Below, piece after piece: positions 10,394-39,229 of a stretch of DNA of 64,000 nucleotides. The first letter of the stretch is position 1; each line of letters starts with the position of its first letter. Below the pieces are notes generated by a model, which saw only the letters and a list, made by a program, of their open reading frames with translations, ran no database searches and was not told where the DNA came from. A program made the translations under genes and the position numbers. The stretch comes from an uncultured Parcubacteria group bacterium (lineage in GTDB: Bacteria; Patescibacteriota; Patescibacteriia; UBA9934; CAMTUG01): positions 345,293-409,292 of the forward strand of contig CAMTUG010000001.1 in assembly GCA_947084965.1 (NCBI GenBank), read 5' to 3'.

Positions 10394-10394
10394 T

Positions 10395-11285: not shown

Positions 11286-11304
11286 TCAAGATATCCTCAA
11301 ACGG

Positions 11305-11340
11305 CACGGGGCCCTGCGCTCCCGTGTCGTTTGTTTTTGT
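11305..11340 (+). terminator. intrinsic terminator after secF (CACGGG…CCCGTG + TCGTTTGTTTTTGT)
   Basis: GC stem followed by a T-rich run. An extended -10-like TGCTAAAAT follows at ~11339-11347, before the next block. Confidence 0.45.
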
Positions 11341-11359: not shown

Positions 11360-13084
11360 ATGCCTGAGATTGAAATCGACCTTTCCTTTCTTTTCGCCTT
11401 TCTCCAAAGGCCGGACGTTTTTTTAGTCAAGGCGTTTCCGTATGTCGCCTGGATTCCGATCGCGGGAGTGTTGATCTGGGGGTTTTTTGAAGTCTGGAAG
11501 TTCAATCGCCAACACCATTTCCGACACGCGATGAAATACATCCTTTTGGCAATCGATGTGCCAAAGATGACCGAACAGTCGCCACAAGCGGTTGAGCAGA
11601 TTTTTGCTTCTTGTGCGGCGGCCTGGGGTGGAGCAACGTTCAAGGAGCAATGGATCGACGGGGAAGTCGCGCCTGTTTTTAGTTTTGAGCTGGTCTCTGA
11701 TGGTGGATACATTCAGTACTATGTTCGTACCCCGACAAAGTTTCGCGATATGATCGAAGCGGCGATTTACGCACAGTATCCGGATGCTGAAATCAGCGAA
11801 GCGCATGATTATGCCCATGATTGGCCCGAGCAGTACCCGAATGATACGCATGACTGTTGGGGGACGGAACAGAAGTTGAGCCAGCCGTACTACTTTCCGA
11901 TTCGCACCTGGCCGGAGTTCGAGCACAAGCTCTCACAAGAAATTAAAGACCCCGTAGGAATCTGGTTGGAGCAGATTTCCCGCCTTCAACCAGGAGAGGT
12001 GTTTGCCACCCAGATTTTGTGCATGCCGTTAGGTGAAGCGAAGACGAGTTGGACCAAAAAAGGGGTGGAGTATATTTATAAAGAGATCGGAAAAGAATCT
12101 AAGGACGCGCATAAAAAGGCTGGGATTCTGGGCGAAACGCTCGGTCAACTTTCTTCCTTGCCAATCGAAGCCGCTCAGCAATTTGGGGTGGCGATGTTTG
12201 GGGGCGGAGCCGATGCGCACGAAGAAAAGAAGGAAGACCCTTGGAAATTCTTGCGTTCTACACCGATCGACAAGGAACGTTTGGATAAAGTGACGGAGAA
12301 GATTCAAAAGCCGGCGATGTTGGTGAAGATTCGTCATGCGTATGTCGCGAAAAAAGAGGTGTATAAAAAGGGTCCGCGTGATAAGATGATCGCGTCCATC
12401 ATGTTCCAATACATGAACCCAAACACGAACTGGTTTGGACGCGTCGGGAAAATTACGCCGAAGACAGATTATTTTTGGCAGAACTGGTCGTTGGAAAAGC
12501 GCAAGCGAAGACTGATTAAGTCCTACATCCACCGTGATGAAGAATATGGACTCCATGGCAATATTCTGAACGTGGAAGAATTGGCTTCACTCTGGCACTT
12601 CCCAACGATCACCATCCTTGCTCCGTTCGTGAAAAAGACCGTTGCCAAGCGTGCGGAACCACCGGTGCAGTTGCCGTATGAGGAACCGGGCGCGGCTGAT
12701 TTTACTGGTGCAATAGCGGGCAAAAAGCCTTCGCGTTTGGCGATGCCGGTGGAATTTATTGAGCCAACGATACCTGGTCGTCCGCGTACTGCTTCGCCAG
12801 AAGCTCATCATGATGAACACGGCGCTGCGGTGGCTCACCAGCATCCAGAATCAAAGGAACATCATGCAGAAGCCCCACGGACGCACGAACGTAAAGCCGC
12901 TCCGCCGATCGGGCTTCCGGTTGAGCCGGATGTCGCGCCACATGTGCCGCAGACCCCAGGGCATCCTGCTTCCGTCCCTGAACATGCTGTTCCTGCGCCA
13001 AAGGCCCAGGCCCCGAGTCATCCATCCGCAACCGACGGCATTCCTGACGAAATCCGTCGGATGATTGACCCCAACTTCGAATAG
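11360..13084 (+). CDS. membrane-anchored N-domain protein of a split VirD4/TraD-like coupling-protein system, with a His/Pro/Ala-rich low-complexity tail
   Basis: N-terminal TM helix. The central region aligns with the N-terminal ~380 aa of the fused protein 47328..49847 (FELVSDGGYIQYYVRTPTKFRDMIEAAIYAQYPDAE vs FEIVAHEKVIKFYVTVPRRYQEFVEQQITAQHPDAF; EELASLWHFPT vs EEMASLFHLPL). The C-terminal ~100 aa are His-rich and low-complexity. Confidence 0.6.
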   Translation: MPEIEIDLSFLFAFLQRPDVFLVKAFPYVAWIPIAGVLIWGFFEVWKFNRQHHFRHAMKYILLAIDVPKMTEQSPQAVEQIFASCAAAWGGATFKEQWIDGEVAPVFSFELVSDGGYIQYYVRTPTKFRDMIEAAIYAQYPDAEISEAHDYAHDWPEQYPNDTHDCWGTEQKLSQPYYFPIRTWPEFEHKLSQEIKDPVGIWLEQISRLQPGEVFATQILCMPLGEAKTSWTKKGVEYIYKEIGKESKDAHKKAGILGETLGQLSSLPIEAAQQFGVAMFGGGADAHEEKKEDPWKFLRSTPIDKERLDKVTEKIQKPAMLVKIRHAYVAKKEVYKKGPRDKMIASIMFQYMNPNTNWFGRVGKITPKTDYFWQNWSLEKRKRRLIKSYIHRDEEYGLHGNILNVEELASLWHFPTITILAPFVKKTVAKRAEPPVQLPYEEPGAADFTGAIAGKKPSRLAMPVEFIEPTIPGRPRTASPEAHHDEHGAAVAHQHPESKEHHAEAPRTHERKAAPPIGLPVEPDVAPHVPQTPGHPASVPEHAVPAPKAQAPSHPSATDGIPDEIRRMIDPNFE

Positions 13085-13085
13085 T

Positions 13086-15065
13086 ATGGAGGACCACGTT
13101 CACACACATCACGGCGCTTCGCCGGACACGACGGGGCACGAAAAAGCGGGCCCGCCGCCGTACGATCACGATCATGAAAATGACATCATCTTTTTTGGTC
13201 GGACAAATTTTCGTAATCAGCTGAAAAAGTTCGGGATCAAAACCGATGATCGCCGCCGTCACATGTATCTGATCGGAAAGACCGGTGTGGGGAAGTCGAC
13301 GTTGCTGGAAAACATGGTGTTGGCCGATATCTACATGGGCCATGGTATCGGGCTGATCGATCCACACGGAGACTTTGCCGAAAAGATCGTTGATTTTATT
13401 CCGCCGCATCGGGTTAATGACGTCGTTTATTTTAACCCGGCGGACGCGGACTATCCGGTTGCCTTTAATATTCTCGAGTCGATTAATCCGGATCATAAAC
13501 ATCTTATTGCATCTGGGCTGATGGGGGTGTTTAAAAAGATCTGGCCGGACGTGTGGAGTGCACGTATGGAGCACATCATGAACATGGCGATCTTGTCGCT
13601 CCTCGAAATGCCGGGCAATACGTTGCTTGGAATTAATCGCCTGTTGGTAGATCAGGATTTCCGTCGTCACTTGATCGTGCAAATTAAAGATCCAGTCGTG
13701 AAGTCGTTCTGGATTACGGAGTTTGAGCAGTGGGAAGTAAAGTTTCGATCAGAAGCGATCGCCCCGATTCAAAACAAAGTTGGACAGTTTTTGTCGACCT
13801 CGCTTATTCGCAACATCGTCGGTCAGCAAAAGTCAACGATCGTTCCGCGAAAGATCATGGACGAACGCAAAATTTTCATCATCAACTTGGCCAAAGGACG
13901 CGTGGGGGAGGACGCCTCGCGCCTAATCGGTGGGATGCTTATTACCAAGATGCAGTTGGCGGCGATGGAGCGCGTGGACATTCCAGAGCCTGATCGTCAG
14001 GACTTCTACCTCTACATCGACGAGTTTCAAAACTTCGCCACAGAATCCTTCGCCAACATCTTGTCCGAGGCGCGTAAATATCGCTTGGCCCTGATCATGG
14101 CGCATCAGTACATCGAGCAGTTGGAAGAGGAAGTTGCCTCCGCCGTATTCGGGAACGTTGGGACGATGGTTGCCTATCGCGTCGGGGCGGGGGATGCGGA
14201 AAAGATGGCCACGGAATTTGCTCCGCGGTTCACGGAAGAGGACTTGGTCAACTTGCCGAAGTTCAACGTTTATTTGAAGTTGATGATCGATGGGATCGCA
14301 TCGGATCCATTTTCAGCAACGACCTTGCCGCCGATCAGTGCGCGTACCAATTCAACGGATGTGGTCGTTGCCGCTTCGCGTCGGCAGTACGCGCGTCCGC
14401 GCGAAGATGTAGAGGCGTCAATCGTTTCGTGGAGCGAAACAAAACGCGCCTTGACGCCGGAAGCGGCTGCGGCCTTACCGCCGCCAAAGATGGGCGGAGC
14501 AAAAAAGTTGAACGAATACGACTGTACGCGCTGCGGCAAGAAGATGCTGCTGCCAGTTGAGTTGGATCGCTCGCGGCCGATTTACTGCGAAACGTGCATT
14601 GAGATCGTTCGTGCAGAACGCAAGGCAGGGAAGCCGGCCGATGGGGCACCTGCGGCCAAACCGACGGATGCGAAGCCGGTAACTCCGGCGCTGCCAAAAC
14701 CGGCCGATTCTTCAGCTCCGGCTCGTCCGGAGCCGCCAAAAGTGGTGGAAACGGATCTAGCGCAAAAAGATGCCGCTGCCCCTGTTTCTCTTACCGAGCT
14801 CAATAAACCGGCCGCGCCGATTATTAAGGCGACTACTACGGAGCCGAAAGTTCCATCGACCCCGAGCGTTGTTCGCCCCGCGCCGACAAGCCCGGCTGGC
14901 GGTTCGAGTTCTGGCGGAGAGACTGAAGAGCAGAAAAAGCGCCGGCGCCGTCGACGCCGGTCTGGTTCTGGTGGCGGAGGTGGATCATCATCTCCTTCAG
15001 GTGGTGGATCCTCGACTCCAGCACCAACCAAGCCGTCGGGTGGTAATGATTTATTTCCTTGGTAA
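13086..15065 (+). CDS. VirD4/TraD/TrwB-like (type IV coupling protein family) P-loop ATPase, copy 1; carries a C-terminal Cys4 zinc-ribbon and an Ala/Pro/Lys-rich, poly-Arg, Gly/Ser-rich disordered tail
   Basis: Walker A YLIGKTGVGKST, DPHGDF (DPxGD-like), Walker B YLYIDEFQNF, and ALIMAHQY. The zinc-ribbon CTRCGKK…RPIYCETC is followed by low-complexity sequence ending in RRRRRRRSGSGGGGGSSS. Start at MEDHV, right after the TAGTATG junction. Confidence 0.75.
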   Translation: MEDHVHTHHGASPDTTGHEKAGPPPYDHDHENDIIFFGRTNFRNQLKKFGIKTDDRRRHMYLIGKTGVGKSTLLENMVLADIYMGHGIGLIDPHGDFAEKIVDFIPPHRVNDVVYFNPADADYPVAFNILESINPDHKHLIASGLMGVFKKIWPDVWSARMEHIMNMAILSLLEMPGNTLLGINRLLVDQDFRRHLIVQIKDPVVKSFWITEFEQWEVKFRSEAIAPIQNKVGQFLSTSLIRNIVGQQKSTIVPRKIMDERKIFIINLAKGRVGEDASRLIGGMLITKMQLAAMERVDIPEPDRQDFYLYIDEFQNFATESFANILSEARKYRLALIMAHQYIEQLEEEVASAVFGNVGTMVAYRVGAGDAEKMATEFAPRFTEEDLVNLPKFNVYLKLMIDGIASDPFSATTLPPISARTNSTDVVVAASRRQYARPREDVEASIVSWSETKRALTPEAAAALPPPKMGGAKKLNEYDCTRCGKKMLLPVELDRSRPIYCETCIEIVRAERKAGKPADGAPAAKPTDAKPVTPALPKPADSSAPARPEPPKVVETDLAQKDAAAPVSLTELNKPAAPIIKATTTEPKVPSTPSVVRPAPTSPAGGSSSGGETEEQKKRRRRRRRSGSGGGGGSSSPSGGGSSTPAPTKPSGGNDLFPW

Positions 15066-15068
15066 TGT

Positions 15069-16523
15069 ATGGAAGACGATCTCCAAGGTGGGTTCGGATC
15101 ATTTGCAGCGCCAACAACGCCGCCCGAGTTTGAGGCGTTCGTTGCTCGTCGCCATGAGCCGCCAGAAACTGTTCCGGTCAAAGGGTCGATCCCTGACGCG
15201 GACATCTCCCTATTTGGTCAAACAAATTACAGCCGCGGGTATGCCGGCGAACGGTATATTTTCGGTATCAAGCGCAAGGATCGCCGCCGTCATCTCTACG
15301 TTATTGGAAAGTCTGGCGTGGGAAAGACCAAGCTGCTCGAACAGTTGATTCGGGCGGACATCTTTTTTGGCCACGGCGTCGGAGTGATCGATCCGCACGG
15401 AGATTTGATCAACTCGATGCTCGAGTTCATTCCAGAGAATCGCATCAACGACGTGGTGGTGATCGATCCGGCCGATCGTGATTTTCCGATTAGCTTCAAC
15501 CCGATCGCCAACGTGGCTGAAGAGGACAAGCACATGGTCACCGACTCGATGATCGAAATTTTCAAAAAGCAGTTTGCGTCGGATTGGTCGCCACGTATTG
15601 AACACTTGCTGCGTTTTTCCACGCTCGCCATGATCGATTACCCCAAAGGAACGATGAACGGGATGGTTTCTTTGCTCTCGAGCGGGCCGTATCGTTCCAA
15701 GGTGATTGAGCATATTAAAGATCCGGTCGTGCGTCGTTTCTGGGCGATCGAATTTCCAGAGTGGTCACAGCGCTATGACGCTGAAGCGGTGTCGCCGCTT
15801 TTGAACAAACTCGGTCAGTTGCTGGCGGACCCATTGATGCGCAACATTTTTGGACAGACAGAATCGAAGATCGATCTGTACGACATCATGCAGAAGAAAA
15901 AGATTCTCCTCGTCAACTTGTCCAAAGGACGCGTTGGTGACGAAAAATCGGCGTTCTTCGGTGCGGTGCTTGTGACGAAGTTGTACCAAGCATCAATGCA
16001 GCGCATTCGCTTGGCAGAAAAAGATCGTCTGCCGTTTTATCTGTACGTTGATGAATTTCAAAACATCGCTACCAAGACGTTTGAAAATATTTTGGCCGAG
16101 GCGCGCAAATTCGGATTTTGTTTGACCGTGGCGAACCAAAACTTGTCACAGTTATCGCCGTCCTTGCGCTCGTCCTTGTTTGGAAACGTCGCTTCGATCA
16201 TCGTTTTCCAAATCAGTGCTGAAGACGCTGATCTGATGAGCAATGAAATGAAGCCGATCTTTGAAACACAAGACATGATCAACCTTTCTGAACGTGAAGT
16301 GTATGTCAAAATGACGATCGATGGTCGCCGCTGGGATCCGTTCTCGGCCGAAGTGCTCCCCGTGACCGCTCCGCGTCATGCCCCGTTTACGGAAGCGATC
16401 ATGAAGCAATCCCGCGAGCTGTATGCCAAACCGCGCGACGTGGTGGAGCGTGAACTAGAAGGTGGCGCGGTCGAAGAGCAAAAAGCCGCCCCGGTCATCA
16501 GCGCCGACGATATTATTGTATAA
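15069..16523 (+). CDS. VirD4/TraD/TrwB-like P-loop ATPase, copy 2 (tandem paralog without the zinc-ribbon/IDR tail)
   Basis: YVIGKSGVGKTKL, DPHGDL, YLYVDEFQNI, LTVANQNL. Also starts MED…. Confidence 0.75.
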   Translation: MEDDLQGGFGSFAAPTTPPEFEAFVARRHEPPETVPVKGSIPDADISLFGQTNYSRGYAGERYIFGIKRKDRRRHLYVIGKSGVGKTKLLEQLIRADIFFGHGVGVIDPHGDLINSMLEFIPENRINDVVVIDPADRDFPISFNPIANVAEEDKHMVTDSMIEIFKKQFASDWSPRIEHLLRFSTLAMIDYPKGTMNGMVSLLSSGPYRSKVIEHIKDPVVRRFWAIEFPEWSQRYDAEAVSPLLNKLGQLLADPLMRNIFGQTESKIDLYDIMQKKKILLVNLSKGRVGDEKSAFFGAVLVTKLYQASMQRIRLAEKDRLPFYLYVDEFQNIATKTFENILAEARKFGFCLTVANQNLSQLSPSLRSSLFGNVASIIVFQISAEDADLMSNEMKPIFETQDMINLSEREVYVKMTIDGRRWDPFSAEVLPVTAPRHAPFTEAIMKQSRELYAKPRDVVERELEGGAVEEQKAAPVISADDIIV

Positions 16524-16543: not shown

Positions 16544-16567
16544 TAGGCGGGGTCACGTACCCCGCCT
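16544..16567 (+). promoter_or_regulatory. GC hairpin (GGCGGGGT-cacgt-ACCCCGCC) + TTT in the only >2-bp gap of the block; possible attenuator or processing site
   Basis: Perfect 8-bp stem between ATPase copy 2 and the first array gene. Confidence 0.3.
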
Positions 16568-16581: not shown

Positions 16582-18312
16582 ATGTCCAACACCCCCAACT
16601 ACGACGCCAAGGTTCAAGCGATTCTCGACGCGACTCAGCCGGGGGAGAGGACGTGCGCGATTACGGGGGAGAAATGGGTTCAGGACGACGAAGAGCTTCG
16701 CTGGTACAAAGAGTTTAACGTCCCACCGTCGGCCCATGCGCCGTACACACGGATGCAGTGTTTTACATCGTTTTTTCGAAGCGGACAGTGGTGGTGGAAT
16801 AAACATCCGGTGACGGGAAAGCCCCTTATCTCGTCGGTGCACCCGGCGTGCGGTGTCCCTGTTCTACCGGACAAAGAATGGCATCAGAAAGATTTTCAGG
16901 AGGTGCAGTCTGAAGTCGATCTTTCGCGATCGTTCATTGATCAGATGTTTGAGCTGCGGAAACGCGTTCCGGCCGCAGCGCATGGAAATTATCAGGAGCC
17001 GGAGAATTCGATCGCCGTTGCTTCGTTTGGCGACGTCAATTCGTATTTTATGGTGGCGAGCAAAGGGAAGAATTGTTTCTTCAGCATCGTGGTGTTGAAC
17101 GGCGAGAATTCATCCGAGGTGTACAACAGCGAATCGATCACCGACAGCTATCACGTCATTCACTGCGAGCGGATGTTTAATTGTCAGTACGTGCGCGAGT
17201 CAAAGGATTGTCTCAACGCGCTTTTCTTGTTTGATTGTCGCAATTGCGAGTTTGTTTTCGGTGGATCGAATCTACGCAATAAAAAGTACGTGTGGTTCAA
17301 CGAACAATTAACGCAGGAAGAATGGGAACGTCGTCGAGCCGAAGTGAACACCGCTTCACGGTCGGCGATGCAACCACATCTCGAACGCTTCGAACAGATG
17401 ATTCAGGACGCGGTCTGGCCAGAAAATTTTAACATCAAATCAGAGAACTGCGTCGGTGAATATCTGACTAACTGTGAAGACAGTCGCTTTGTTTACTATG
17501 CCGACGGCGGCGCCCGTAATAACTACTGGATCGCTTGGTTAATTGGCAAGGCCGAACACAACGCCTTTGTCGCCGATCCGGCTAGTTCGCAAGATACGTA
17601 TTGCTCGACCGCGCTTTCGAGCTGTTTCAATACCAAGTTCTCTGTCTATTCCGTGCGCTGTAAAGATGTCGAATATTGTCTTGAGTGTTATGACTCGGAA
17701 TACTGCTTTGGATGCGTCGGCTTGCGTAAGAAGAGGTTCTGTATTTTGAACAAGCAGTACACCGAATCTGAGTATTGGCCAATGATCGACGCGATCAAGT
17801 GTGCGATGATCGATCGAGGGGAATATGCCGAAGGAGTTCCTCCGAAGTTTTCGCTCGGCTGGTTTCCAGAATCTGGCGCGGCCAAATATTATCAGTCGAC
17901 AGAAGAGTTTGGGCGCAGGATCGGTGCCAACGTATTTGATCCTGCATCTGAAGGAGCGTACGGCGACGAATTGATGACCGCCCGCGAGGTACGCGACGTT
18001 TCGCAAATCCCAGACGATGCCAAGGAATTGGATGGCTGGGCAGGTGTTGCTTTATTCGATCCGGAATTTAAGCGCCGGTATTCTTTGCTCGCGCCCGAAA
18101 TCGCTTTGTACCAAAAGCTGAAGATCGCTCCGCCGAACACACACTTCATTGATCGCGTTCATAAGTACATTCGCCTCGGCAACGCTCCAATCTTCCTCGA
18201 GGCCTCCTGTGCAAACTGCAGCAAGCAAGTGACGATCGCCAAAAATCCAACGTACACCAATCGCAAAATCTACTGCACCGAGTGCTACGTGAAGTACTTG
18301 GAAAGCAAATAA
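16582..18312 (+). CDS. Cys-rich paralog family protein, member 1 of 10 (uncharacterized family)
   Basis: MSNTPNYDAKVQAILDA…FDCRNCEFVFGGSNLRNKKYVWFNEQLTQEEWERRR…EYCLECYDSEYCFGCVGL…CANCSKQVTIAKNPTYTNRKIYCTECY. Start placed at the conserved MSNTP motif (tracked ORF begins upstream at 16462). Confidence 0.7.
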   Translation: MSNTPNYDAKVQAILDATQPGERTCAITGEKWVQDDEELRWYKEFNVPPSAHAPYTRMQCFTSFFRSGQWWWNKHPVTGKPLISSVHPACGVPVLPDKEWHQKDFQEVQSEVDLSRSFIDQMFELRKRVPAAAHGNYQEPENSIAVASFGDVNSYFMVASKGKNCFFSIVVLNGENSSEVYNSESITDSYHVIHCERMFNCQYVRESKDCLNALFLFDCRNCEFVFGGSNLRNKKYVWFNEQLTQEEWERRRAEVNTASRSAMQPHLERFEQMIQDAVWPENFNIKSENCVGEYLTNCEDSRFVYYADGGARNNYWIAWLIGKAEHNAFVADPASSQDTYCSTALSSCFNTKFSVYSVRCKDVEYCLECYDSEYCFGCVGLRKKRFCILNKQYTESEYWPMIDAIKCAMIDRGEYAEGVPPKFSLGWFPESGAAKYYQSTEEFGRRIGANVFDPASEGAYGDELMTAREVRDVSQIPDDAKELDGWAGVALFDPEFKRRYSLLAPEIALYQKLKIAPPNTHFIDRVHKYIRLGNAPIFLEASCANCSKQVTIAKNPTYTNRKIYCTECYVKYLESK

Positions 18313-18313
18313 T

Positions 18314-20044
18314 ATGTCCAACACCCCCAACTACGACGCCAAAGTCAGAGCGATTCTCGACGGGCTTACACCCGGCGAGCGTGTTTGTTCGCTCACAGGC
18401 GAGAAGTGGATGATGACCGAGGAAGAGATCGGTTGGTATAAAAAGTTTAATGTGCCACCGAGCACAGTTGCGCCGATGAATCGGGTTAAGCTGACCACTC
18501 TTTTTGGTACGGGATTTGGCTGGTGGTGGAATAAGCACGCCAAAACAGGGAAGCCGTTGTTGTCGTATGTGCATCCGGCCAACGGAATCAAAGTTCTGCC
18601 TGATCCAGAGTTTTTTGAACAGGACAATACGGACAAAGCGCGTGAGTACGACACAGAACAGAGTTTTTTTGATCAGATTCGTGCCCTTCAGCTTGAAGTT
18701 CCCTTTACGGCTTGGCGTTCGTTGACTGTGCCGGTCAATTCGATCGCTCTTTTGTCGCAAGGGGACGAGAACAGCTATTTCGTCACCGCCTGTAAATCCA
18801 AAAATTCATTCTACGCCTATTCGGTTGATGACATGGAAAACTCGGCCGAAGCGTTCGAATCCAAGTTTGTTGTTAATTCCTACAACGTTCTTAACTCGCA
18901 GCGCATTCATAACTGTAAGTTTGTGCGTCAGTCGTATGACTGCATGAACTGTAGTTTTGTTTTTGACTGTCGTAACTGCGAGTTTGTCTTTGGTGGCTCA
19001 AACCTGCGCAACAGAAAGTACGTATTTTTCAACGAGCAGTTGAGCAAAGAGGGCTGGGAAGCGCGCGTTGCCGCAATCGACCTCGGCAGCCGTCAGGTTC
19101 TCGAGGAATATATCGCCAAGTTCCAAGATCTGGTGGGACATAAAGCGGTCTGGCCAGAGAACTTCAATGAACAAGTCGAGGATTGCATCGGTGAATACTT
19201 GAATAAGTGCCGACAGTGTAAGTATCTGCTGGCAGGACATGGATCAGCCAATAACTACTACGGCGCGGTCTTTATCGACAACAGCGAAAATAATGCCTTC
19301 GTCGGCGGGGCGATTGGAAGCTTCGACAACATCTATTGTCATGCTCCGCTCAAGTCACGTGGTTGTAAGTACGTGCATTCAACGTACGAATCACAGAACA
19401 TGGAATACTGTATGCAGTGCTACAACTGTGAAAATTGTTTTGGGTGTGTTGGTCTGATCCGCAAGTCGTTCTGCATCTTCAATAAACAGTACACGCCAGA
19501 AGAGTATTGGAAGCGCGTCGATGAGTTAAAATGTGCCATGCTTGATCGCGGAGAGTACGGAGAATTCTTCCCAGCGAAGTTCTCCCCGAGCTACTGGGCC
19601 GTTTCTGTCGGGTTGCTCTATCAGATCGAAGATCCTGAAGCGATTAAGCTCGGAGCGCTCATGCTTGATCCGGAATCGGCCGGCGCGCTTGGGGAATTGC
19701 CGGTCGGGGCGGTGATGCGTTCATCTGATGATCTGCCAGATAACATCAAAGAGGTTGGTGAGGACTGGGGTGGTCAACCGATGATGGATCCGGTTGAAAA
19801 GCGTCGTTACGCCCTGTTAAAGCCCGAGATCGCCCTCTACAAGCAGTTAGGGGTCGCTGTGCGCGCTATGCACCCAATGAAGCGTCTTCGATCGATGGTT
19901 TTTGAAGCCAACTCGGGGAACTTCATCGACTCAACCTGCGCCAAGTGTGGCAAAGCAGTGACGGTAGCAACCAATAAAACATATCCCGACCGCGTCATCT
20001 ACTGCCGCGAGGATTACCTCAAATTCATCGAACAAAACGGCTAG
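18314..20044 (+). CDS. Cys-rich paralog family protein, member 2 of 10
   Basis: MSNTPNYDAKVRAILDG…. The terminal motif is CAKCGK…IYCREDY, with the fourth Cys replaced by Asp. Confidence 0.7.
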   Translation: MSNTPNYDAKVRAILDGLTPGERVCSLTGEKWMMTEEEIGWYKKFNVPPSTVAPMNRVKLTTLFGTGFGWWWNKHAKTGKPLLSYVHPANGIKVLPDPEFFEQDNTDKAREYDTEQSFFDQIRALQLEVPFTAWRSLTVPVNSIALLSQGDENSYFVTACKSKNSFYAYSVDDMENSAEAFESKFVVNSYNVLNSQRIHNCKFVRQSYDCMNCSFVFDCRNCEFVFGGSNLRNRKYVFFNEQLSKEGWEARVAAIDLGSRQVLEEYIAKFQDLVGHKAVWPENFNEQVEDCIGEYLNKCRQCKYLLAGHGSANNYYGAVFIDNSENNAFVGGAIGSFDNIYCHAPLKSRGCKYVHSTYESQNMEYCMQCYNCENCFGCVGLIRKSFCIFNKQYTPEEYWKRVDELKCAMLDRGEYGEFFPAKFSPSYWAVSVGLLYQIEDPEAIKLGALMLDPESAGALGELPVGAVMRSSDDLPDNIKEVGEDWGGQPMMDPVEKRRYALLKPEIALYKQLGVAVRAMHPMKRLRSMVFEANSGNFIDSTCAKCGKAVTVATNKTYPDRVIYCREDYLKFIEQNG

Positions 20045-20045
20045 T

Positions 20046-21785
20046 ATGAGTAACACCCCCAACTACGACGCCAAAGTCAAAGCGATTATCGACGGCATTC
20101 AGCCGGGCGCACGGGTGTGTTCGGTGCTCGGAGAGAAGTGGGAGATGACGGAGAAGGAGATCGATCTCTACCGTCGATTCAATATGCCGCCGCGGACGGT
20201 CGCAACGAACACACTGTGGAAACAGATGGCGTATTACGATGCCGGCTATCAGTTTTGGTGGAACAAGCATCCGGACACAGGAAAGCCTGTGCTTTCGTTT
20301 CATCATCCCGCTTCAGGTGTAAAAGTGCTTCCAGATGCAGAGTGGCACGCGCGAGACTTTAGCACGATCAACATCGATATCGATCCTTCGAAGCCATTCT
20401 TCGAGCAACTGCGTTCGTTGCAAGTTCAGGTTCCACTGCTTGCTACATTTAGCCGCGTCGAACCAGAAAACTCCATCACCTTGTTTTCGTTTGGTGATCG
20501 TAACAGTTACTTCACCTTTGCCTGTACGTCGGAGCGTACCTTTTTTGCTACCGGCGGATTTGAAGCGCAAGGGTCATCGCTGCTGTTCACCACGAATCAA
20601 ACGACGGACTGTCACCATGTTTTTAAATCTCAACGCATCTTCAAATGTCGTTATGTGCGTGAATCGCTTGACTGCATCGACAGCGCGTTCCTGTTCGATT
20701 GTCGTAACTGTCAGAACTGCTTCGGGGCGAGCAACAAGCGCAATCGGCAGTATGTCTTCATGAATGAGCAGTTGACGAAGGAAGAATACGAACAGCGCAT
20801 GAGTCAGATTGATTTAAGCAAGCGCAGTGAAGTGGAAACGTGGTCAAAGGCGTTTGATGAACTCTTAGCACGTGATGGTGTCTGGCCGGAAAACTTTAAT
20901 GTCAATTGTCAGGATTCGACCGGTGAATATCTCACGGGCGCGGTACGCTGTGATACTTGCTATGACTCGGCGGATGCGCCGAGCGATCAGTATCACACCT
21001 GTTGGAGTTATGGGGTCAATAACAATAATGCCTTCATGTGGGGCTCGGTCGATAGCACGGACGGGTACATGGTTTGTTCCTGTCCAAACTCAAACCAGAC
21101 GAAGTTTTCGTATCGCTCGTTCCGGTTAGATAACTGCGAGTACTGTTTCATGTGTGCGGACTTGCGCGATTGTTTCGGTTGCATCGGCTTAAAGAAAAAA
21201 CGGTTTTGTATTTTTAACAAGCAATACGAAGAGGAGGAGTATTGGCGTCTGGTCGACGAAATAAAATGTGCCATGCTCGAACGCGGGGAATATGGTCAGT
21301 ATTTTCCAACTTCGATGGCGACGACGTTCGTGCCGGAAGGCGGAGCAGTTGTGTACTGCGGGGCGACGCCAGAAGAGTTGCAAAAGCTCGGCGGGCAAAC
21401 GTTCGGGGCGGAAGACATGGATGCTACGGGTACGGGCCGGATCGACCCATCAAAAGCGCGTCGCCGTGAGGACATTCCAGATGCGATCGATGACCTTGGC
21501 GACGAATGGATCGGTGTACCGATCTACGATGAGGTGTCTGGACGGACGTTCGCCTTTTTAAAGCCAGAGGTCGAACATTATCGCCGCTTACGCATCGCTC
21601 CTCCGAATACGCACTTCATTCGTCGTATGCATGAGGTATCAAGTGCGGGACAGCGTGCCTGTTTGCAAAACGCTTCCTGTGCGCAGTGCAGCGCTACATT
21701 TATCGTAGCCAAGAATTTCCGCTATCCGGACCGCCGCATCTACTGCAAGGCGTGCTACACTGCCTTCATTGAAAAGAACGGCTAG
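20046..21785 (+). CDS. Cys-rich paralog family protein, member 3 of 10
   Basis: MSNTPNYDAKVKAIIDG…FDCRNCQNCFGASNKRN…CAQCSATFIVAKNFRYPDRRIYCKACY. Confidence 0.7.
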   Translation: MSNTPNYDAKVKAIIDGIQPGARVCSVLGEKWEMTEKEIDLYRRFNMPPRTVATNTLWKQMAYYDAGYQFWWNKHPDTGKPVLSFHHPASGVKVLPDAEWHARDFSTINIDIDPSKPFFEQLRSLQVQVPLLATFSRVEPENSITLFSFGDRNSYFTFACTSERTFFATGGFEAQGSSLLFTTNQTTDCHHVFKSQRIFKCRYVRESLDCIDSAFLFDCRNCQNCFGASNKRNRQYVFMNEQLTKEEYEQRMSQIDLSKRSEVETWSKAFDELLARDGVWPENFNVNCQDSTGEYLTGAVRCDTCYDSADAPSDQYHTCWSYGVNNNNAFMWGSVDSTDGYMVCSCPNSNQTKFSYRSFRLDNCEYCFMCADLRDCFGCIGLKKKRFCIFNKQYEEEEYWRLVDEIKCAMLERGEYGQYFPTSMATTFVPEGGAVVYCGATPEELQKLGGQTFGAEDMDATGTGRIDPSKARRREDIPDAIDDLGDEWIGVPIYDEVSGRTFAFLKPEVEHYRRLRIAPPNTHFIRRMHEVSSAGQRACLQNASCAQCSATFIVAKNFRYPDRRIYCKACYTAFIEKNG

Positions 21786-21786
21786 T

Positions 21787-23514
21787 ATGTCCAAAACTCC
21801 TCAGTACGAAGCAAGAGTAAAGGCAATTCTCGGCGGGCTCACGCCTGGCGAGCGGGTCTGTGCGATGACAGGGGAGAAGTGGATGATGGATGATGAGGAG
21901 ATCAGCTGGTATCGCAAATTTAACGTCCCACCGTCGCCGTTTTCGCCAAAGGCGCGTTTGTGGCACTTGGCTGCGAACGGCTGGAGCGCCTACCAGTGGT
22001 GGTGGAATAAGCATCCAGAAACTGGAGCGCCGGTGTTGTCCTATGTGCATCCAGCAAGTGGAATTAAGGTTTTGCCAGACAAGGAATGGTTTGCCAAAGA
22101 TTTCTCGAACGTGTTTTTAGAGCCAGCCGTGGAGCAGCCGTTTTTCGAACAATTCCGCACGCTTCAGGTACAGATTCCGGTCAACGCCACGCGCAATGTA
22201 AAGGAGCCTGAAAATTCAATCGCTACGGTCTCCGCGGGGGATGTAAATAGTTTTTTCGTCCAGGCTTCGCGCACCCGCGACTGCGTGTATACGATCGATT
22301 GCATGGATGCAGAAAATTGTGTGGAATGCAGTGGTTGTGAATCCATTCAGGAGTGTTATCGCGTCGGTCACTCTCAGCGGATGTTTCGTTGTGGATTTGC
22401 GAATGAGTGCATCGACTGTCAATCTTCGTCATTCATTTTTGATTGTCGCAATTGTGAGTTCTGCTTCGGCGCTTGCAATCAACGCAACAAAAAGTACTTG
22501 TGGTGGAATGAACAGTTGACCAAGGAAGAATGGGAAAAGCGCATCGCTGAGATTACACCGGGGAATCGTGGTTGGCTCGAGGCGCAGAAGGAACGCTATC
22601 TCAAGATGGTCGGATCAGAGGCGGTTTGGCCAGAGCATTTCAATTCGCAGAGCGAAGGTTCAATTGGCGAGTATTTGTTGCGTTGTGCTAATTGTCGTTA
22701 TAGCTTCTTTGGTCTTGATTCGCAGGATAATTACTACGCCTTCGGATTTTATAATGCGCGGAACAGCACGTTCTGTACTTCGATCGTCGGTGACAATAAT
22801 TATCAGTCGGGTACAAACGGCGAGTCTTCAAATACCAAGTTCTCGAATTCGCTCGTACGCTGTGATGACCTCGAGTACTCGTTCAATTGCTATGACTGCA
22901 CGCACTGTTTCGGCTGTGTCGGTTTGCGCCACAAAAAGTTTTGTATTTTGAACAAGCAATATACTGAAGCGGAGTACTGGAAAAAGGTGGATGAAATGAA
23001 GTGCGCCATGCTCGAACGAGGGGAGTATGGAAAACCAGTTCCTACAAAATATTCATTCTCTTACTTCCCGGAATCGGGCCCAGCGATGTATTTAGCGGCA
23101 AAACAGGAGGACTGGGATGCGGTCGGTATGCAGAAATTTGATGCCTCGGCTGAGGGGGCATTCGGTGCAGTGCGTGAAGGGGCACGTCCCGCCGCAGATG
23201 TGCCGGAGAATATTGATGATCTGGATCCTGCTGTTTGGTCAGGTGTGCCGATCGAGGACGCCGAAGAACATCGCCCGTTTACGCTTCTCGCCCCGGAAAT
23301 CGCTTTTTACAAAGAAAAGCGGATCGCCCCGCCCCGCACCCATTTTATCTCGCGAATGCGTGAGTTGATCTGGATGCAGAATACCGGCTTGTTTGAAAAG
23401 GCTACCTGTTCGGCCTGTAAGAAAGAGTTAACCGTCGCAGTGAATCGTACTTTCACAAAACGGAATCTTCACTGCTACGAATGCTACCTGAAGTATCTTT
23501 CACAAAGGGGATAG
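21787..23514 (+). CDS. Cys-rich paralog family protein, member 4 of 10
   Basis: MSKTPQYEARVKAILGG…FDCRNCEFCFGACNQRNKKYLWWNEQLTKEEWEKR…CSACKKELTVAVNRTFTKRNLHCYECY. Start at the conserved motif (tracked ORF begins at 21769). Confidence 0.7.
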   Translation: MSKTPQYEARVKAILGGLTPGERVCAMTGEKWMMDDEEISWYRKFNVPPSPFSPKARLWHLAANGWSAYQWWWNKHPETGAPVLSYVHPASGIKVLPDKEWFAKDFSNVFLEPAVEQPFFEQFRTLQVQIPVNATRNVKEPENSIATVSAGDVNSFFVQASRTRDCVYTIDCMDAENCVECSGCESIQECYRVGHSQRMFRCGFANECIDCQSSSFIFDCRNCEFCFGACNQRNKKYLWWNEQLTKEEWEKRIAEITPGNRGWLEAQKERYLKMVGSEAVWPEHFNSQSEGSIGEYLLRCANCRYSFFGLDSQDNYYAFGFYNARNSTFCTSIVGDNNYQSGTNGESSNTKFSNSLVRCDDLEYSFNCYDCTHCFGCVGLRHKKFCILNKQYTEAEYWKKVDEMKCAMLERGEYGKPVPTKYSFSYFPESGPAMYLAAKQEDWDAVGMQKFDASAEGAFGAVREGARPAADVPENIDDLDPAVWSGVPIEDAEEHRPFTLLAPEIAFYKEKRIAPPRTHFISRMRELIWMQNTGLFEKATCSACKKELTVAVNRTFTKRNLHCYECYLKYLSQRG

Positions 23515-23515
23515 T

Positions 23516-25249
23516 ATGTCACAGACACCAAACTTTGACGCGAAGATGAAGCAGATTCTCGAGGCCACACAACCGGGTGAGCGAGTTTGTGCACTGACAG
23601 GTCGTGCATGGAAAATGGATGAGGAAGAACTTGCTTGGTATCGGAGATTTAATGTGCCACCATCCAATCGGGAACCATTGGCCCGTACACAGCTGCGAGC
23701 AAGTTTTTGGACAGGGTATCAGTGGTGGAATCATAAGCATCCGATAACTGGCAAGACCCTTATTAGCAATATTCATCCGGCGACAGGAATTAAAGTTATT
23801 CCAGACAAGGAATGGCACGCGCAAGACTTTTCTGAAATCAACAGTGATTACAGCGTAGACCAGCCATTTTTCGATCAGCTTCGAGCGTTACAACTTCGAG
23901 TTCCGCATCCGGCCAGCAGAAATGTCGTTGAGCCAGAAAACTCTATCGCCACAATTTCAATGGGGGATCGTAACAGTTACTTCACCCTCGGTTGCACCTC
24001 CGAAAACTCTCTCTACAGTATTTGGGCAGCAAACTTGAGTAATTCTTCCGAGGTGAATTTTGCCGGGGTCATTAGTGATAGTTACAGCGTTAACAATGCC
24101 AAGAACGTCCATGGCTCACTTTTTGTACGTGAGAGTAAAGACGTTATCAAGTCCGCGTTTGTTTTTCTTTGTGATGACGTTGAATATTGTTTTGGTGCCA
24201 CGAATCAATCACACAAAAAGTTTATCTTCTTTAATAAGCAACTGACAGAAGATGAGTTTAAGGCAGAGATCACCAAGATTGATCTCTCCCGACGCGATCA
24301 ACTTCAAATGTACATAGGTCGTTTTCGCGATCTCGTGGGTAACCAAACGATCTGGCCAGAAACCTTGAGTAACCGTAACGTAAACGTGACAGGTGAGTAC
24401 AACTACGACTGCCGAGATCTGCAGAATTGTTACGGGTGTGTTGATAACTGTGCAAATTTGTTTTGGTGTAATTACGGAGTCGACGGTACGGACAGTGCTT
24501 TTTCTACACCTGTTCGCTCAACGGCGTGTTACGAAGGAGATAATACGTATAATTCGCACGACGTAAAGTTTTCGTATGCGACGTACCGTTGTCGGTCGAT
24601 GGAGTATTGCTTGATGAACTACGACTGCGAAGATTGTTTCGGGTGCGTCGGATTGCGCCACAAAAAGTTTCACATCTTTAACAAGCCTTATGAGGAAGCA
24701 GAGTATTGGAGGCGTGTCGACGAACTAAAGTGTGCGATGCTTGATCGTGGGGAGTATGGAAACTTCTTTCCGCTTTCTATGTCGACGGCCTACTTCGGGG
24801 AATCAGGTGGAGTGATGTATTACGACGCGGACCCTTCGTTAAACAAAACCTTTGGTGGATTGGAGTACGATCCAGAGTCTGCCGGGGCCATTGGGGACTT
24901 GGCCATGGCATCAGTCGTCAAAAAAACAACGGATATCCCAAACAGTATCGCTGATGTACAGGACGCGGATTGGGTTGGTGTACCTGTGATGGACGTTGTT
25001 CATAATCGACGTTTTGCTTTTTTGAAGCCGGAAATGGATTTTTATCGTCGAAAAAAGTTGGCACCACCTGCAGAACATTTCGTGTATCGCATCAAAAAGT
25101 TATCGTGGGAAGGCAACTTGGGTATTTTGGAAGAGCGGTCCTGTGCGAAGTGCGGAAAGAAGATACAGGTTGCTAAAAACCTCACATATCCAAATCGTCA
25201 GGTGTATTGCATGGACGATTACCTTCAATATCTTGAAGAAGCAACTTAG
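23516..25249 (+). CDS. Cys-rich paralog family protein, member 5 of 10
   Basis: MSQTPNFDAKMKQILEA…. The most diverged central region. Terminal CAKCGKKIQVAKNLTYPNRQVYCMDDY, with Cys replaced by Asp. Confidence 0.7.
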   Translation: MSQTPNFDAKMKQILEATQPGERVCALTGRAWKMDEEELAWYRRFNVPPSNREPLARTQLRASFWTGYQWWNHKHPITGKTLISNIHPATGIKVIPDKEWHAQDFSEINSDYSVDQPFFDQLRALQLRVPHPASRNVVEPENSIATISMGDRNSYFTLGCTSENSLYSIWAANLSNSSEVNFAGVISDSYSVNNAKNVHGSLFVRESKDVIKSAFVFLCDDVEYCFGATNQSHKKFIFFNKQLTEDEFKAEITKIDLSRRDQLQMYIGRFRDLVGNQTIWPETLSNRNVNVTGEYNYDCRDLQNCYGCVDNCANLFWCNYGVDGTDSAFSTPVRSTACYEGDNTYNSHDVKFSYATYRCRSMEYCLMNYDCEDCFGCVGLRHKKFHIFNKPYEEAEYWRRVDELKCAMLDRGEYGNFFPLSMSTAYFGESGGVMYYDADPSLNKTFGGLEYDPESAGAIGDLAMASVVKKTTDIPNSIADVQDADWVGVPVMDVVHNRRFAFLKPEMDFYRRKKLAPPAEHFVYRIKKLSWEGNLGILEERSCAKCGKKIQVAKNLTYPNRQVYCMDDYLQYLEEAT

Positions 25250-25250
25250 T

Positions 25251-26996
25251 ATGTCGCATACACCAAATTTTGACGCCAAGATCAACGCCATTCTCGATGC
25301 AATCCAAGCAGGCGAGCAAACCTGTGCATTGACTGGAGAGAAATGGATGCTGGATGAACTTGAATTAAACTTTTATCGCAAGTTTAGTTCTCCTCTATCT
25401 GTGTATTCTCCGCAAACGCGCATGAAGCTTCTCGGTGGGTTTCGGACGGGTTTTGAAATTTTTTGGAATAAGCATGCGAAGTCCGGGGAGCCGATCCTTA
25501 GTTATATTCACCCGGATAATCCAATTCCTGTTGTCACCGATGCGGATTGGCACGCCATGGATATCGGCGGCTTGCAGGAGTACCAACGCGAGATCGACCC
25601 TGCCCAACCATTTTTCGAGCAGTTTCGCAGCTTGGCACATGTGGTACCAATGGGCGCGCGCCGCGAATGGAAGAACGTCGTCAATACGGTCGGGGTTGGT
25701 ATGTGGGATATTGAAGATAGTTATCTTGTTTTTTCGACCGTTGGCGTGAAGCGCTGCATGTACACCTTTTACTGTCTTGAAGGATCAGAGGACATCACTC
25801 AGTCCGTGCATATCAATCACTCACAAAACTGCTTTGGATCAACGCAGATTACTCGTTGTCATTCATGTACTGTAGCGGTCATTAGCTTCGATTGCTTGAA
25901 GTGTGATTTCGTTTATGACTGTCGTAACTGTGAGTTTGTCTTTGGGGGAGCGAATTTGCGTAACAAAAAGTACGTCTGGTTCAACGAGCAATTGAGTAAG
26001 GACGAGTGGGAACGTCGTCGCGCGGCGGTCGATCTCTCCTGTCGTTCTGTGTTCAAGGAGTACCAACAGAAGTTCCTTCAACTTGTCGAACAGTCGGCCA
26101 CACCGGAACATTTTAATGTGAACGCGCCGGACTGTACGGGGGATTATCTTACGGACTGTGTGCGCTGCAAGGATTGCTATAGCTCGCAGCGGCTGACGGA
26201 TTGCGCCTATATGCATGGATCGACCGGGGCTGAAGGCAGTGCATTCTGTGTCGGGGCGTACCCAGCGACGCAGTCCTGGATGTGCAGCATGATCTCGAAT
26301 TCCAGCAATCTTAAATACTCCATGACCTGCGGGCGGAGCCAGAATCTCGAGTACTGCTTCAATTGTCATGATTGTGAAAACTGTTTCGGGTGTGACGGTC
26401 TGCGCAATCGTAAGTTTTGCATTGGGAACGTGCAGTACAGCGAGGACGAGTACTGGCGCCGTGTCGATGCGTTGAAGTGCGCCATGCTGGAACGGGGAGA
26501 ATACGGCCAGTTCTTTCCTCAGGATCTTTCGCCGACCGGCATGCAGTTTAGCCATTCGGCTATGTATTATCGGCTTTCAACCGCCGATGTGCAGGCTCTT
26601 GGGGCGCCGCTGTATGATCCGGATCAAGGCGTGGTGCTGGCTCCAAAGAAAACGGTTGAAGAACCTCCAAAAGATGCATCTGCGGCTCCAGACTGTTTGC
26701 GGGACGTTGATCCGGCCGTGTGGGTTAGTAAACCGTTCATGGACGAGCGGGTGCGTCGTCGCTGGAGTGTTGTGCCAAAAGAGTTCGCTTATTACACGGA
26801 TCGTCAGTTGCCATTTCCGGAAGAGCACTATTCTTCTCGGTTGCAAAAACAGATTCAGATGATGAACCAGCCGGCCTTTGAACAACTGCCGTGCGTGGTC
26901 TGTCAAAAGCCAGTGCAGGTCGGGCGCAACCCAGCATTTACAAAGCGTCGCGTGCATTGCATGAGTTGCTACCTGAAGTATTTGGAAGCACACTAG
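25251..26996 (+). CDS. Cys-rich paralog family protein, member 6 of 10
   Basis: MSHTPNFDAKINAILDA…YDCRNCEFVFGGANLRNKKYVWFNEQLSKDEWERRR…CVVCQKPVQVGRNPAFTKRRVHCMSCY. Start at the conserved motif (tracked ORF begins at 25143). Confidence 0.7.
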   Translation: MSHTPNFDAKINAILDAIQAGEQTCALTGEKWMLDELELNFYRKFSSPLSVYSPQTRMKLLGGFRTGFEIFWNKHAKSGEPILSYIHPDNPIPVVTDADWHAMDIGGLQEYQREIDPAQPFFEQFRSLAHVVPMGARREWKNVVNTVGVGMWDIEDSYLVFSTVGVKRCMYTFYCLEGSEDITQSVHINHSQNCFGSTQITRCHSCTVAVISFDCLKCDFVYDCRNCEFVFGGANLRNKKYVWFNEQLSKDEWERRRAAVDLSCRSVFKEYQQKFLQLVEQSATPEHFNVNAPDCTGDYLTDCVRCKDCYSSQRLTDCAYMHGSTGAEGSAFCVGAYPATQSWMCSMISNSSNLKYSMTCGRSQNLEYCFNCHDCENCFGCDGLRNRKFCIGNVQYSEDEYWRRVDALKCAMLERGEYGQFFPQDLSPTGMQFSHSAMYYRLSTADVQALGAPLYDPDQGVVLAPKKTVEEPPKDASAAPDCLRDVDPAVWVSKPFMDERVRRRWSVVPKEFAYYTDRQLPFPEEHYSSRLQKQIQMMNQPAFEQLPCVVCQKPVQVGRNPAFTKRRVHCMSCYLKYLEAH

Positions 26997-26997
26997 T

Positions 26998-28683: not shown

Positions 28684-28684
28684 T

Positions 28685-30415: not shown

Positions 30416-30416
30416 T

Positions 30417-32144: not shown

Positions 32145-32146
32145 GT

Positions 32147-38772: not shown

Positions 38773-38788
38773 CTTGAAGAAGATGTGC

Positions 38789-39163
38789 TCAGACGGAGCG
38801 ACGGATGACCTGCACCGGTTCGAGGTCGTACAGGTACACCAGCTGCTTCTGGCGGCGGCTGCCTCCGAGGTGTCGGCCCATGGGGCGGGCCGGGACGATC
38901 ACCCGCGAACCCTCCTCGATGTAGATCTTCGACCTCCGCGGATGGACGAAGGTCAGGCGTTCTTCGCAGCGCTTGATCGTCGCGACCTTGGCGTTGAACC
39001 TGCGATCGACCTCCGCGGTGGTGACGAAGTAGCCGAGCGATTCGAGGTGAGCCAGGAGCTGACCTTCCTCGGTCGAGTAGGGCTTGATCTGTCCGCGGAG
39101 TTCGCGGAAGACGCGGATGGCGTTGTCGGCGGTCATTGTGGCCAGGACAGCAGCGAGCAGCAT
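38789..39163 (-). CDS. hypothetical small protein in a high-GC islet (possible paralog of 5611..5988)
   Basis: GGAGG 7 nt upstream of the ATG at 39163. The overlapping plus-strand N-extension of the lepA ORF looks like an antisense artefact. Confidence 0.45.
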   Translation of the reverse strand: MLLAAVLATMTADNAIRVFRELRGQIKPYSTEEGQLLAHLESLGYFVTTAEVDRRFNAKVATIKRCEERLTFVHPRRSKIYIEEGSRVIVPARPMGRHLGGSRRQKQLVYLYDLEPVQVIRRSV

Positions 39164-39229
39164 GGGTACCTCCACCCGCAACCTACCGACAATGGACGGA
39201 ATGGTCAAGATTCGCTAAAGTGCGCACGT

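Follow-up and report, generated by a model that had tools for sequence, protein, structure and literature searches.

An ancient two-gene version of a VirB4/VirD4-family ATPase in Patescibacteria and its one-gene fused paralog

Canonical T4CPs, such as VirD4, TrwB and TraD, have a two-helix membrane domain directly joined to the motor. One membrane machine may be encoded by one or by two genes, as exemplified by SecD and SecF versus the fused SecDF; this protein family is unrelated to the one considered here, and its analogy with the split locus lies in gene organisation alone. In Patescibacteria, VirD4-type proteins have been counted as T4CP homologues, and 148 of the 5,713 homologues lie near virB4 (PMC12102498). 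TrsD, a separately encoded homologue of the N-terminal part of VirB4, is common in the same bacteria (PMC12102498). Because TrsD is encoded separately, the VirB4 family already shows a layout with the N-domain on its own gene, and the TrsD|TrsE (pGO1-type) split of VirB4 resembles the anchor/ATPase split described below.

The locus is best explained as an ancient and conserved form of a Patescibacteria-specific VirB4/VirD4-family ATPase that is encoded by two genes. It lies in a 64-kb stretch of DNA from an uncultured Parcubacteria group bacterium, which was analysed as a whole and is referred to here as the window; all features are on the forward strand. A terminator-like hairpin with a 14-bp stem and a T-run (11298..11333) lies between secF and the first gene and delimits the split operon on its 5' side. 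The first gene (11360..13084, with the stop codon TAG at 13082-13084) encodes a 574-aa protein, here called the anchor, which comprises a single N-terminal TM helix (approximately aa 18-57), a cytoplasmic, VirB4-NTD-like DUF8128 domain that ends with AKRAEPPVQLP at aa 439, and a disordered, low-complexity tail (aa 440-574; 12677..13081) that ends IPDEIRRMIDPNFE. The second gene (13086..15065), in the +1 frame relative to the anchor gene, encodes the first ATPase, A1 (659 aa), in which a 25-aa His-rich N-extension, YDHDHEND (aa 26-33), a VirD4/TrwB-type P-loop domain (approximately aa 34-455), a putative zinc finger of the CxxC-x17-CxxC type (aa 480-504; nt 14523-14597) and a disordered tail ending DLFPW follow one another. 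A second ATPase, A2 (15069..16523; 484 aa, ending DDIIV), was overlooked in the sequence-only reading; its gene starts 3 nt after that of A1, and the two proteins are 44% identical. Neither ATPase has a TM segment. The fused paralog (47328..49847) is an 839-aa protein in which DUF8128 extends to approximately aa 394 and is separated by a linker of about 8 aa from the ATPase (aa 402-825). The neighbours of the split and fused genes in the window are secDF, bacA, mnmA, lepA, recJ, pilM, cysS and dnaX.

Sequence comparison supports the view that each gene encodes one half of a protein for which a fused form exists as well. The sequence-only reading had described the 839-aa protein as the anchor ORF joined to the ATPase ORF, and BLASTP indeed places both halves on it in the same order, the anchor protein at residues 40-402 (26% identity, E 4e-23) and A1 at residues 398-827 (40% identity, E 3e-112). 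The motif EE(L/M)ASL(W/F)H(F/L)P, which was said to be shared, is also there: EELASLWHFP and EEMASLFHLP are both found when the split and fused proteins are compared. In profile-profile comparison, the split N-proteins match the fused proteins over 367 columns (probability 99.95%, E 1e-37), and the alignment stops exactly at AKRAEPPVQLP in the split form and ARTAPVPAQVP in the fused form. The precomputed Pfam label PF26449.1 (DUF8128) is carried by the 574-aa protein, the 839-aa protein and nearly all homologs; a literature search on DUF8128 found no paper.

The motors resemble those of T4CPs (PF10412, PF02534, PF12696) in their FtsK/HerA-type P-loop domain. A1, A2 and the fused protein exceed the Pfam gathering scores of TrwB_AAD_bind and TraG-D_C, that of T4SS-DNA_transf is passed by A2 and the fused protein, and TrwB is the sole PDB sequence match. 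The ATPases of the window most likely belong among the VirD4-type T4CP homologues mentioned above. Unlike canonical T4CPs, however, these systems have one TM helix and a cytoplasmic DUF8128 of about 350 aa, either fused to the motor or on its own protein; the fused protein contains one long helix (aa 12-46) before DUF8128, instead of two helices. The split ATPase additionally has a putative C-terminal zinc finger, the curated NCBIfam TraD/VirD4-like equivalogs score only 40-54 bits (vs cut-offs of 250-650), and no relaxase, virB4 or other T4SS genes were found in the 64-kb window. The closest structural relative is VirB4/TrwK, with which the family shares, at the level of the fold, a VirB4-type N-terminal domain followed by a motor domain. 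Nonetheless, there is no match to PF03135 (CagE_TrbE_VirB), TIGR00929 scores 14-21 bits vs a cut-off of 643, the window proteins possess an N-terminal TM helix and a motor nearer to the VirD4 families by sequence, and their genes do not adjoin other T4SS genes. A weak structural likeness to EccE and EccC of type VII secretion is accompanied by neither sequence similarity nor other Esx genes.

The two-gene arrangement is not peculiar to this genome. Among 1,718 homologs of the N-domain, the best 120, from Uhrbacteria and other Patescibacteria, were examined, and all are stand-alone proteins of 468-639 aa with 41-68% identity. Of 76 informative genome loci, 73 have a distinct ATPase ORF immediately 3' of the DUF8128 ORF; in L058, L060 and L076 the DUF8128 gene has no ATPase gene within the available sequence, so adjacency is not absolute. 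The split form occurs in Uhrbacteria, Magasanik-, Falkow- and Buchananbacteria and in Paceibacteria-type genomes. The fused lineage, searched for with the full-length 839-aa query (the N-half query gave mostly contig-end fragments), is strongly conserved in its own right: the best 120 of 1,089 matches are 58-87% identical, almost all 810-870 aa long, and combine PF26449 with PF10412. All 107 of these 120 proteins that contain both motifs have a distance of 66-71 aa from EEMASxWHxP to Walker A, and their linker is 5-12 aa long with no long or His-rich stretch. The fused gene also has a conserved neighbourhood (cysS, small ORF, fused gene, small ORF, dnaX). The split form and its one-gene fused paralog coexist in the same genomes: both are present in one complete 1.0-Mb genome, with synteny as in the window, and in the locus L067. 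A neighbour-joining tree of the ATPase domains, midpoint-rooted with no outgroup, cleanly separates a fused, an A1 and an A2 clade and is silent on the direction of fission or fusion and on the origin of A2.

The free ends of the two proteins carry conserved motifs of their own. Approximately 80 of 120 anchor proteins terminate in PP[ND]LP[VILT]-COOH (83 have P.NLP within the last 12 aa, in addition to PPDLPV-type ends), and the split ATPases start with the conserved motif M-x-Y-[DN]HDHEN, with H[DE]H[DE] at the start of 55 of 75. The window anchor does not have the PP[ND]LP[VIL]-COOH end of most orthologs; its tail, the 135 aa after AEPPVQLP, consists of 18% P, 16% A, 10% E and 9% H and includes a semi-conserved IPD.xR.xxDP motif. 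The sequence-only reading had emphasised His-rich sequence on both sides of the joint. His is indeed enriched above chance (background of 2.2% His in 37 window ORFs), both in the anchor tail (12 of 135 residues, P 5e-5) and at the start of A1 (7 of 33, P 6e-6), but YDHDHEND is a conserved family motif and not low complexity. The 25-aa His-rich N-extension before it is specific to the window. Nor are His-rich tails typical of the family, given that the median His content is 1.5% in 36 orthologous anchor tails vs 8.8% in that of the window; only the window and a few relatives have such a tail. Another candidate, the N-extension of A1 as a displaced tail, was discarded, since the other two frames 3' of the TAG, translated by eye, are unlike the tail ends of orthologs.

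At the joint itself, the anchor gene and A1 are linked by TAG-T-ATG (13082..13088), with a gap of 1 nt. Neither a terminator nor a promoter-like site was found between them, in agreement with the tight coupling suggested from the sequence alone. The same heptamer, TAGTATG, occurs at secD|secF and at five downstream junctions of the Cys-rich paralogs, and TAGTATG or TAATATG is found at secD|secF and at eight of the nine junctions of that array. Most starts at the window junctions have no SD-like motif immediately 5'. As secD|secF share the identical heptamer, this type of junction carries no special meaning; it is the ordinary operon link of the genome. It is very probable that the locus represents a conserved two-gene paralog with ordinary coupling and no recoding. 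Other readings of the joint fare less well. An ancestral, continuous His-rich linker broken by a stop or frameshift, as had been proposed, is contradicted by the short linker of the fused lineage, with no His-rich stretch, and a recent break is at odds with the split in all 73 ATPase-adjacent loci and with the best 120 of 1,718 homologs being stand-alone. Orthologs that uniformly have two genes had been named beforehand, together with an absence of read heterogeneity, as what would speak against such a break, and the 73 loci display the first of these. That a mutation recently inactivated the gene, or that an indel arose in sequencing or assembly, so that the split would be a pseudogene or an artefact, is hardly credible: although the frames of the anchor and A1 are offset by one base only, the split is kept in 73 independent genome assemblies and the best 120 stand-alone homologs, the window halves cluster with split-type orthologs, away from the fused clade, and the split lineage has a long tail, a YDHDHEN cap and a zinc finger that the fused proteins do not have.

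The second mechanism envisaged in the sequence-only reading, a programmed +1 frameshift (or a bypass of the stop codon) that would yield a low-frequency fusion beside the two separate products, likewise appears very improbable. The A1 frame has no stop over the 20 nt leading to the TAG (13065-13084) and contains a C-run, GAC CCC AAC (13067-13075), and a fused form that clearly works is encoded elsewhere in this genome; however, the C-run is accompanied by neither a hungry or stop codon nor an SD-like sequence 5', no canonical slippery or stimulatory element is present in 13065-13084, RNA folding around the joint does not stand out (z -0.6), and an Rfam search gave no match at the joint. In 25 of 74 loci both ORFs are in frame with a short gap, but neither the frame relation nor the spacing is conserved: the ATPase ORF is in the same frame in these 25 loci, in +1 in 14 and in +2 in 35, and the gaps are -4, -1, 1, 2, 3, 5, 6 and so on up to 150 nt, some of them above 100 nt. 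Moreover, TAGTATG joins unrelated gene pairs in the window, and both termini have their own conserved motifs, as free ends should.

The direction of the change is a separate matter. A fused ancestor is somewhat favoured; we infer that the break that gave A1 falls on the C-terminal side of the A[KR]RAEPP..LP segment, whereas A2 was truncated before it. In A2, aa 24-36 correspond to the conserved segment FVARRHEPPETVP and are followed by a short, fused-type linker, and 11 of 11 A2 orthologs start with VARRHEPP..LP and then a short linker. Truncation of a fused ancestor is the easiest account of the retention by A2 of A[KR]R.EPP..LP and this linker. The tail, cap and zinc finger of the split lineage also look derived, and in VirB4/TrwK, the closest structural relative, both domains are in one chain. 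The converse, an ancestral pair of genes from which gene fusion produced the 839-aa protein, is possible though less probable; it bears on direction alone and does not conflict with the core explanation. It would fit the phylogenetic breadth of the split form (from Uhrbacteria to Paceibacteria-type genomes), the stand-alone state of remoter DUF8128 proteins (386-484 aa) and the precedent of TrsD (PMC12102498). The ATPase tree is effectively unrooted and proves neither direction.

Further features of the split operon lie downstream of A1. A2 has no zinc finger. Nesting of A2 inside A1 was considered and rejected, as the neighbour-joining tree puts A2 on a separate long branch. A2 is followed by ten tandem Cys-rich paralogs (16582..33883) of 561-581 aa, with 19-33 Cys and 33-52% identity, which begin with MS.TP and terminate in a CxxC-x17/18-CxxC finger. 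Only 1-2 nt separate neighbouring genes at each of the nine junctions, and related loci likewise keep the array 3' of A1 and A2. The spacing of the zinc-finger Cys and the flanking residues are conserved in most A1 orthologs and nearly all ten paralogs, while the last finger Cys is substituted in three of the ten. The A1 finger scores below the cut-offs of the PF23477 and TIGR04272 models (19.7 bits vs 27 and 19.1 bits vs 36, respectively), as does the first Cys-rich paralog with the treble-clef zinc finger model (19.7 bits vs 27). No NCBIfam match and no PDB sequence relative were found for the Cys-rich paralogs.

Taken as a conserved two-gene paralog with ordinary coupling, the locus would function as follows. 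The first gene would encode a single-pass membrane anchor with a VirB4-N-terminal-domain-like DUF8128 module and a disordered tail, and the second a putative hexameric-type P-loop motor with a Y-DHDHEN N-terminal cap and a C-terminal zinc finger, followed, in the sub-clade of the window, by a second presumed motor, A2, and the Cys-rich protein array. TAG-T-ATG would be a normal termination-reinitiation junction that gives two polypeptides in roughly matched amounts, and no frameshift or readthrough fusion would be expected from it. By analogy with the fused paralog, and from gene adjacency, the anchor protein may plausibly bring the ATPase(s) to the membrane by non-covalent binding, standing in for the covalent link of the fused protein. 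A bolder and rather unlikely proposal is a self-contained translocation module, independent of a VirB4 system, that consists of one anchor, two motors and Cys-rich cargo or partners. In such a module, A1 with its zinc finger and A2 without one could both be served by the single VirB4-like-domain anchor, and separation of anchor and motor would let that anchor work with two motors. The Cys-rich proteins might be recognised via the CxxC-x17-CxxC finger that A1 has as well, and docking in this lineage could be made metal- or pH-dependent by the His-rich tail together with the HDH cap.

On average, about two 'orphan' VirD4-like ATPases of unknown role are present per Patescibacteria genome (PMC12102498). 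Those two probably correspond to the fused and the split lineage, which are paralogous. Each lineage rests on the VirB4-N-domain-like DUF8128, which gives the orphans a concrete architecture with conserved, docking-type termini, and A2 and the Cys-rich array are offered as candidate partners. For annotation, a stop-T-ATG between genes with complementary domains is ordinary operon coupling, and such genes should be neither merged nor flagged as frameshifts. Overall, an ancient gene fission or fusion of an ordinary kind accounts for the locus, within a little-described family of Patescibacteria ATPases.

The anchor ORF (11360..13084, + strand, 574 aa, stop TAG at 13082-13084) and the first ATPase, A1 (13086..15065, + strand, 659 aa, with its ATG one base past the TAG in the +1 frame), are together the counterpart of the 839-aa fused paralog (47328..49847). 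In pairwise alignments, residues 40-402 of the fused protein match the anchor ORF (26% identity, E 4e-23), and residues 398-827 match A1 (40% identity, E 3e-112). Profile-profile comparison of split N-proteins (n=30) with fused proteins (n=90) gave a probability of 99.95% (E 1e-37, 367 columns), and the alignment ended exactly at AKRAEPPVQLP in the split form and ARTAPVPAQVP in the fused form. The 135 residues after AKRAEPPVQLP form a P/A/E/H-rich tail (His 9%), and A1 has seven His within its first 33 residues; relative to the 2.2% His background of 37 window ORFs, both sides of the joint are enriched (P 5e-5 for the tail, P 6e-6 for the A1 start). The sequence-only reading was correct in these observations, i.e., the split pair, the fused form and the His enrichment.

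Its explanation, a His-rich linker broken by a stop or frameshift, or else a recoding site producing a low-level fusion, is not supported. A protein database search with the N-domain returned 1,718 homologs, the best 120 of which were all stand-alone (468-639 aa, 41-68% identity; hosts Uhrbacteria and other Patescibacteria). Scanning a single genome for each species yielded 80 loci, 76 with enough downstream sequence; the ORF of the anchor family (DUF8128) was never fused, and a separate ATPase ORF followed it directly in 73 of the 76. Both results speak against a recent break or artefact at the joint. The other three loci (L058, L060 and L076, from Magasanikbacteria, Falkowbacteria and a MAG, respectively) have a DUF8128 gene without any ATPase gene in the flanks examined; in L076, it is followed by a glycosyltransferase and DUF4012 / DUF11 proteins. 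Across the 73 loci and the window, the two genes share a frame in 25 cases and are offset by +1 in 14 and +2 in 35, with gaps of -4 (ATGA), -1, 1, 2, 3, 5 or 6 nt or wider, to a maximum of 150 nt; since frames and gaps vary in this way, no recoding mechanism could be conserved. Programmed recoding was rejected also because, in the window, the open A1 frame extends only 20 nt upstream of the anchor stop, no slippery site was recognised in this stretch, local RNA folding is on a par with that of shuffled sequences (z -0.6), and an Rfam search at the joint gave 0 matches.

An ancestral continuous His-rich linker is likewise contradicted by the fused proteins. The full-length fused query retrieved 1,089 proteins, and the best 120 have 58-87% identity, lengths of 810-870 aa in almost all cases and, without exception, the labels PF26449+PF10412. 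In each of the 107 of these in which both motifs were found, EEMASxWHxP lies 66-71 residues from Walker A; the linker is therefore only 5-12 residues long, with nothing His-rich. The fused form is a lineage separate from the split form: a neighbour-joining tree of the ATPase domains has three clean clades (fused, A1 and A2, the second ATPase), and the two forms occur together in the window, in the related locus L067 and in the complete 1.0-Mb genome OZ246408.1. In the latter, as in the window, the split locus follows secDF, and the fused gene lies in the common order cysS - small ORF - fused - small ORF - dnaX. The two small ORFs of the window (46788-47324, +, 178 aa, 3 nt before the fused gene; 49890-50489, +, 199 aa, on its other side) have no family assignment; because OZ246408.1 (L081) has ORFs of 161 and 209 aa at these two positions, the window ORFs may be conserved partners.

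Nor is a His-rich tail a general feature, the median in 36 orthologous anchor tails being 1.5% (window 8.8%, rank second). The C-terminus reads PP[ND]LP[VILT]-COOH in approx. 80 of 120 anchor proteins, where it follows a disordered tail spanning 57-198 residues (median 104); some also contain IPDAxRxL..P.VELEDV. The window tail retains IPDEIRRMIDP but has no such hexapeptide at its end. In nearly every A1 ortholog, the start is M-x-Y-[DN]-H-D-H-E-N-[DE]-[VI], in which HEN[DE][IV] aligns with [DE]G.I of the fused linker. Because of this shared start, YDHDHEND is a family motif; only the 25 residues ahead of the motif (MEDHVHTHHGASPDTTGHEKAGPPP) are peculiar to the window. Most A1 orthologs also have a C-terminal CxxC-x17-CxxC finger (C[ST]RC.K...LPVELDRSRPIYCE[DE]C) and, besides it, a conserved last motif.

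The heptamer TAGTATG at the anchor/A1 joint (13082-13088) recurs at the secD|secF joint (10391-10397) and at five joints of the Cys-rich array, where three more have TAATATG (18310-32149). It is a recurring stop/start joint between co-directional genes in the window, and the anchor/A1 joint is therefore a standard coupling joint of this genome. For most starts in the window, no SD-like motif lies immediately 5', and the preceding base is T. No terminator- or promoter-like site was found between the anchor gene and A1, and a strong terminator-like hairpin lies upstream of the anchor gene (11298-11333). The proposed translational coupling stands as far as this tight adjacency goes, whereas re-initiation is inferred. 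SecD itself (665 aa, 8396-10393, +) has an unusual architecture, with a PpiC-type peptidyl-prolyl isomerase domain (Rotamase_3, aa 237-349, E 2e-24) inserted between the P1 sub-domains. The LepA ORF (38774-41017, +, 747 aa, TTG start) has approx. 155 residues ahead of the GTPase domain, reflecting a genuine N-terminal extension or else a start called too far upstream.

The direction of change is informed by A2 (15069..16523, +), an ATPase-only paralog not mentioned in the sequence-only reading, which starts 3 nt past A1 and is 44% identical to A1 and 38% to the fused protein. All 11 orthologs start with [FLI]VARRHEPP..[LV]P, followed after approx. 10 residues by [ED][DE]ISLFG.TN[FY]; the C-terminal end is [DE]EIIV. 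A2 thus retains the A[KR]R.EPP..LP segment, with which the conserved part of the anchor protein ends in the split system, and its linker is short and of the fused type. A fused ancestor is therefore the simplest explanation, and its fission appears moderately probable; A1 would have arisen by a break after this segment and A2 by truncation before it. VirB4, the closest structural relative, has both domains in one chain, which agrees with such an ancestor. However, the ATPase tree was built with no outgroup, and either arrangement is viable, as TrsD shows: this homologue of the N-terminal part of VirB4 is encoded by its own gene (PMC12102498).

A2 occurs only in the sub-clade that also carries the Cys-rich array (L001-5, L008, L022, L036, L043 and L044). 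In the window, this array comprises ten tandem paralogs (16582-33883, +, 561-581 aa, 19-33 Cys) with 33-52% mutual identity, all with an MS.TP start and a terminal CxxC-x17/18-CxxC finger like that of A1, although three of the ten have another residue in place of the last Cys. Their family, for which E<=1e-3 gives 2,167 cluster representatives, mostly of 550-580 aa, has no relative in Pfam, NCBIfam or PDB. In the 58-nt gap between A2 and the first Cys-rich gene lies a GC-rich hairpin (ggcgggg-tcacgta-ccccgcc + TTT, 16546-16566, +) that the terminator scan did not list and that could act as a partial terminator or attenuator.

A1, A2 and the fused protein all exceed the Pfam thresholds for TrwB_AAD_bind and TraG-D_C, and A2 and the fused protein also that for T4SS-DNA_transf; all three fall far under every NCBIfam equivalog cut-off, and TrwB is the sole PDB sequence match. 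The anchor protein had 0 matches in the local Pfam and NCBIfam model sets; it and its homologs carry the protein-database label PF26449, DUF8128, a name of which a literature search found no mention. The motor is related to T4CPs by sequence, but the two-helix membrane domain of T4CPs is lacking, and no relaxase or T4SS gene lies in the window; the whole protein resembles VirB4 at the fold level, although VirB4 sequence models do not match it. DUF8128 is on record as a domain of unknown function, and the ATPases have probably been included in counts of T4CP homologues. Neither the DUF8128/VirB4-NTD link nor the fused and split paralog lineages nor their conserved termini were described in the literature searched. 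A 2025 survey found 5,713 VirD4-type homologues in 2,918 genomes of Patescibacteria; of these homologues, only 148 lay near virB4, and exaptation for other roles was proposed as possible (PMC12102498).

Termination at the TAG with immediate re-initiation at the ATG would keep the membrane anchor/adaptor and the soluble motor at matched levels. The motor hexamer would be held at the membrane by the cytoplasmic VirB4-like domain of the anchor and the A[KR]RAEPP..LP segment, a hold that would be the counterpart of the covalent link in the fused paralog, in a sub-clade that encodes a second motor and ten Cys-rich proteins alongside.
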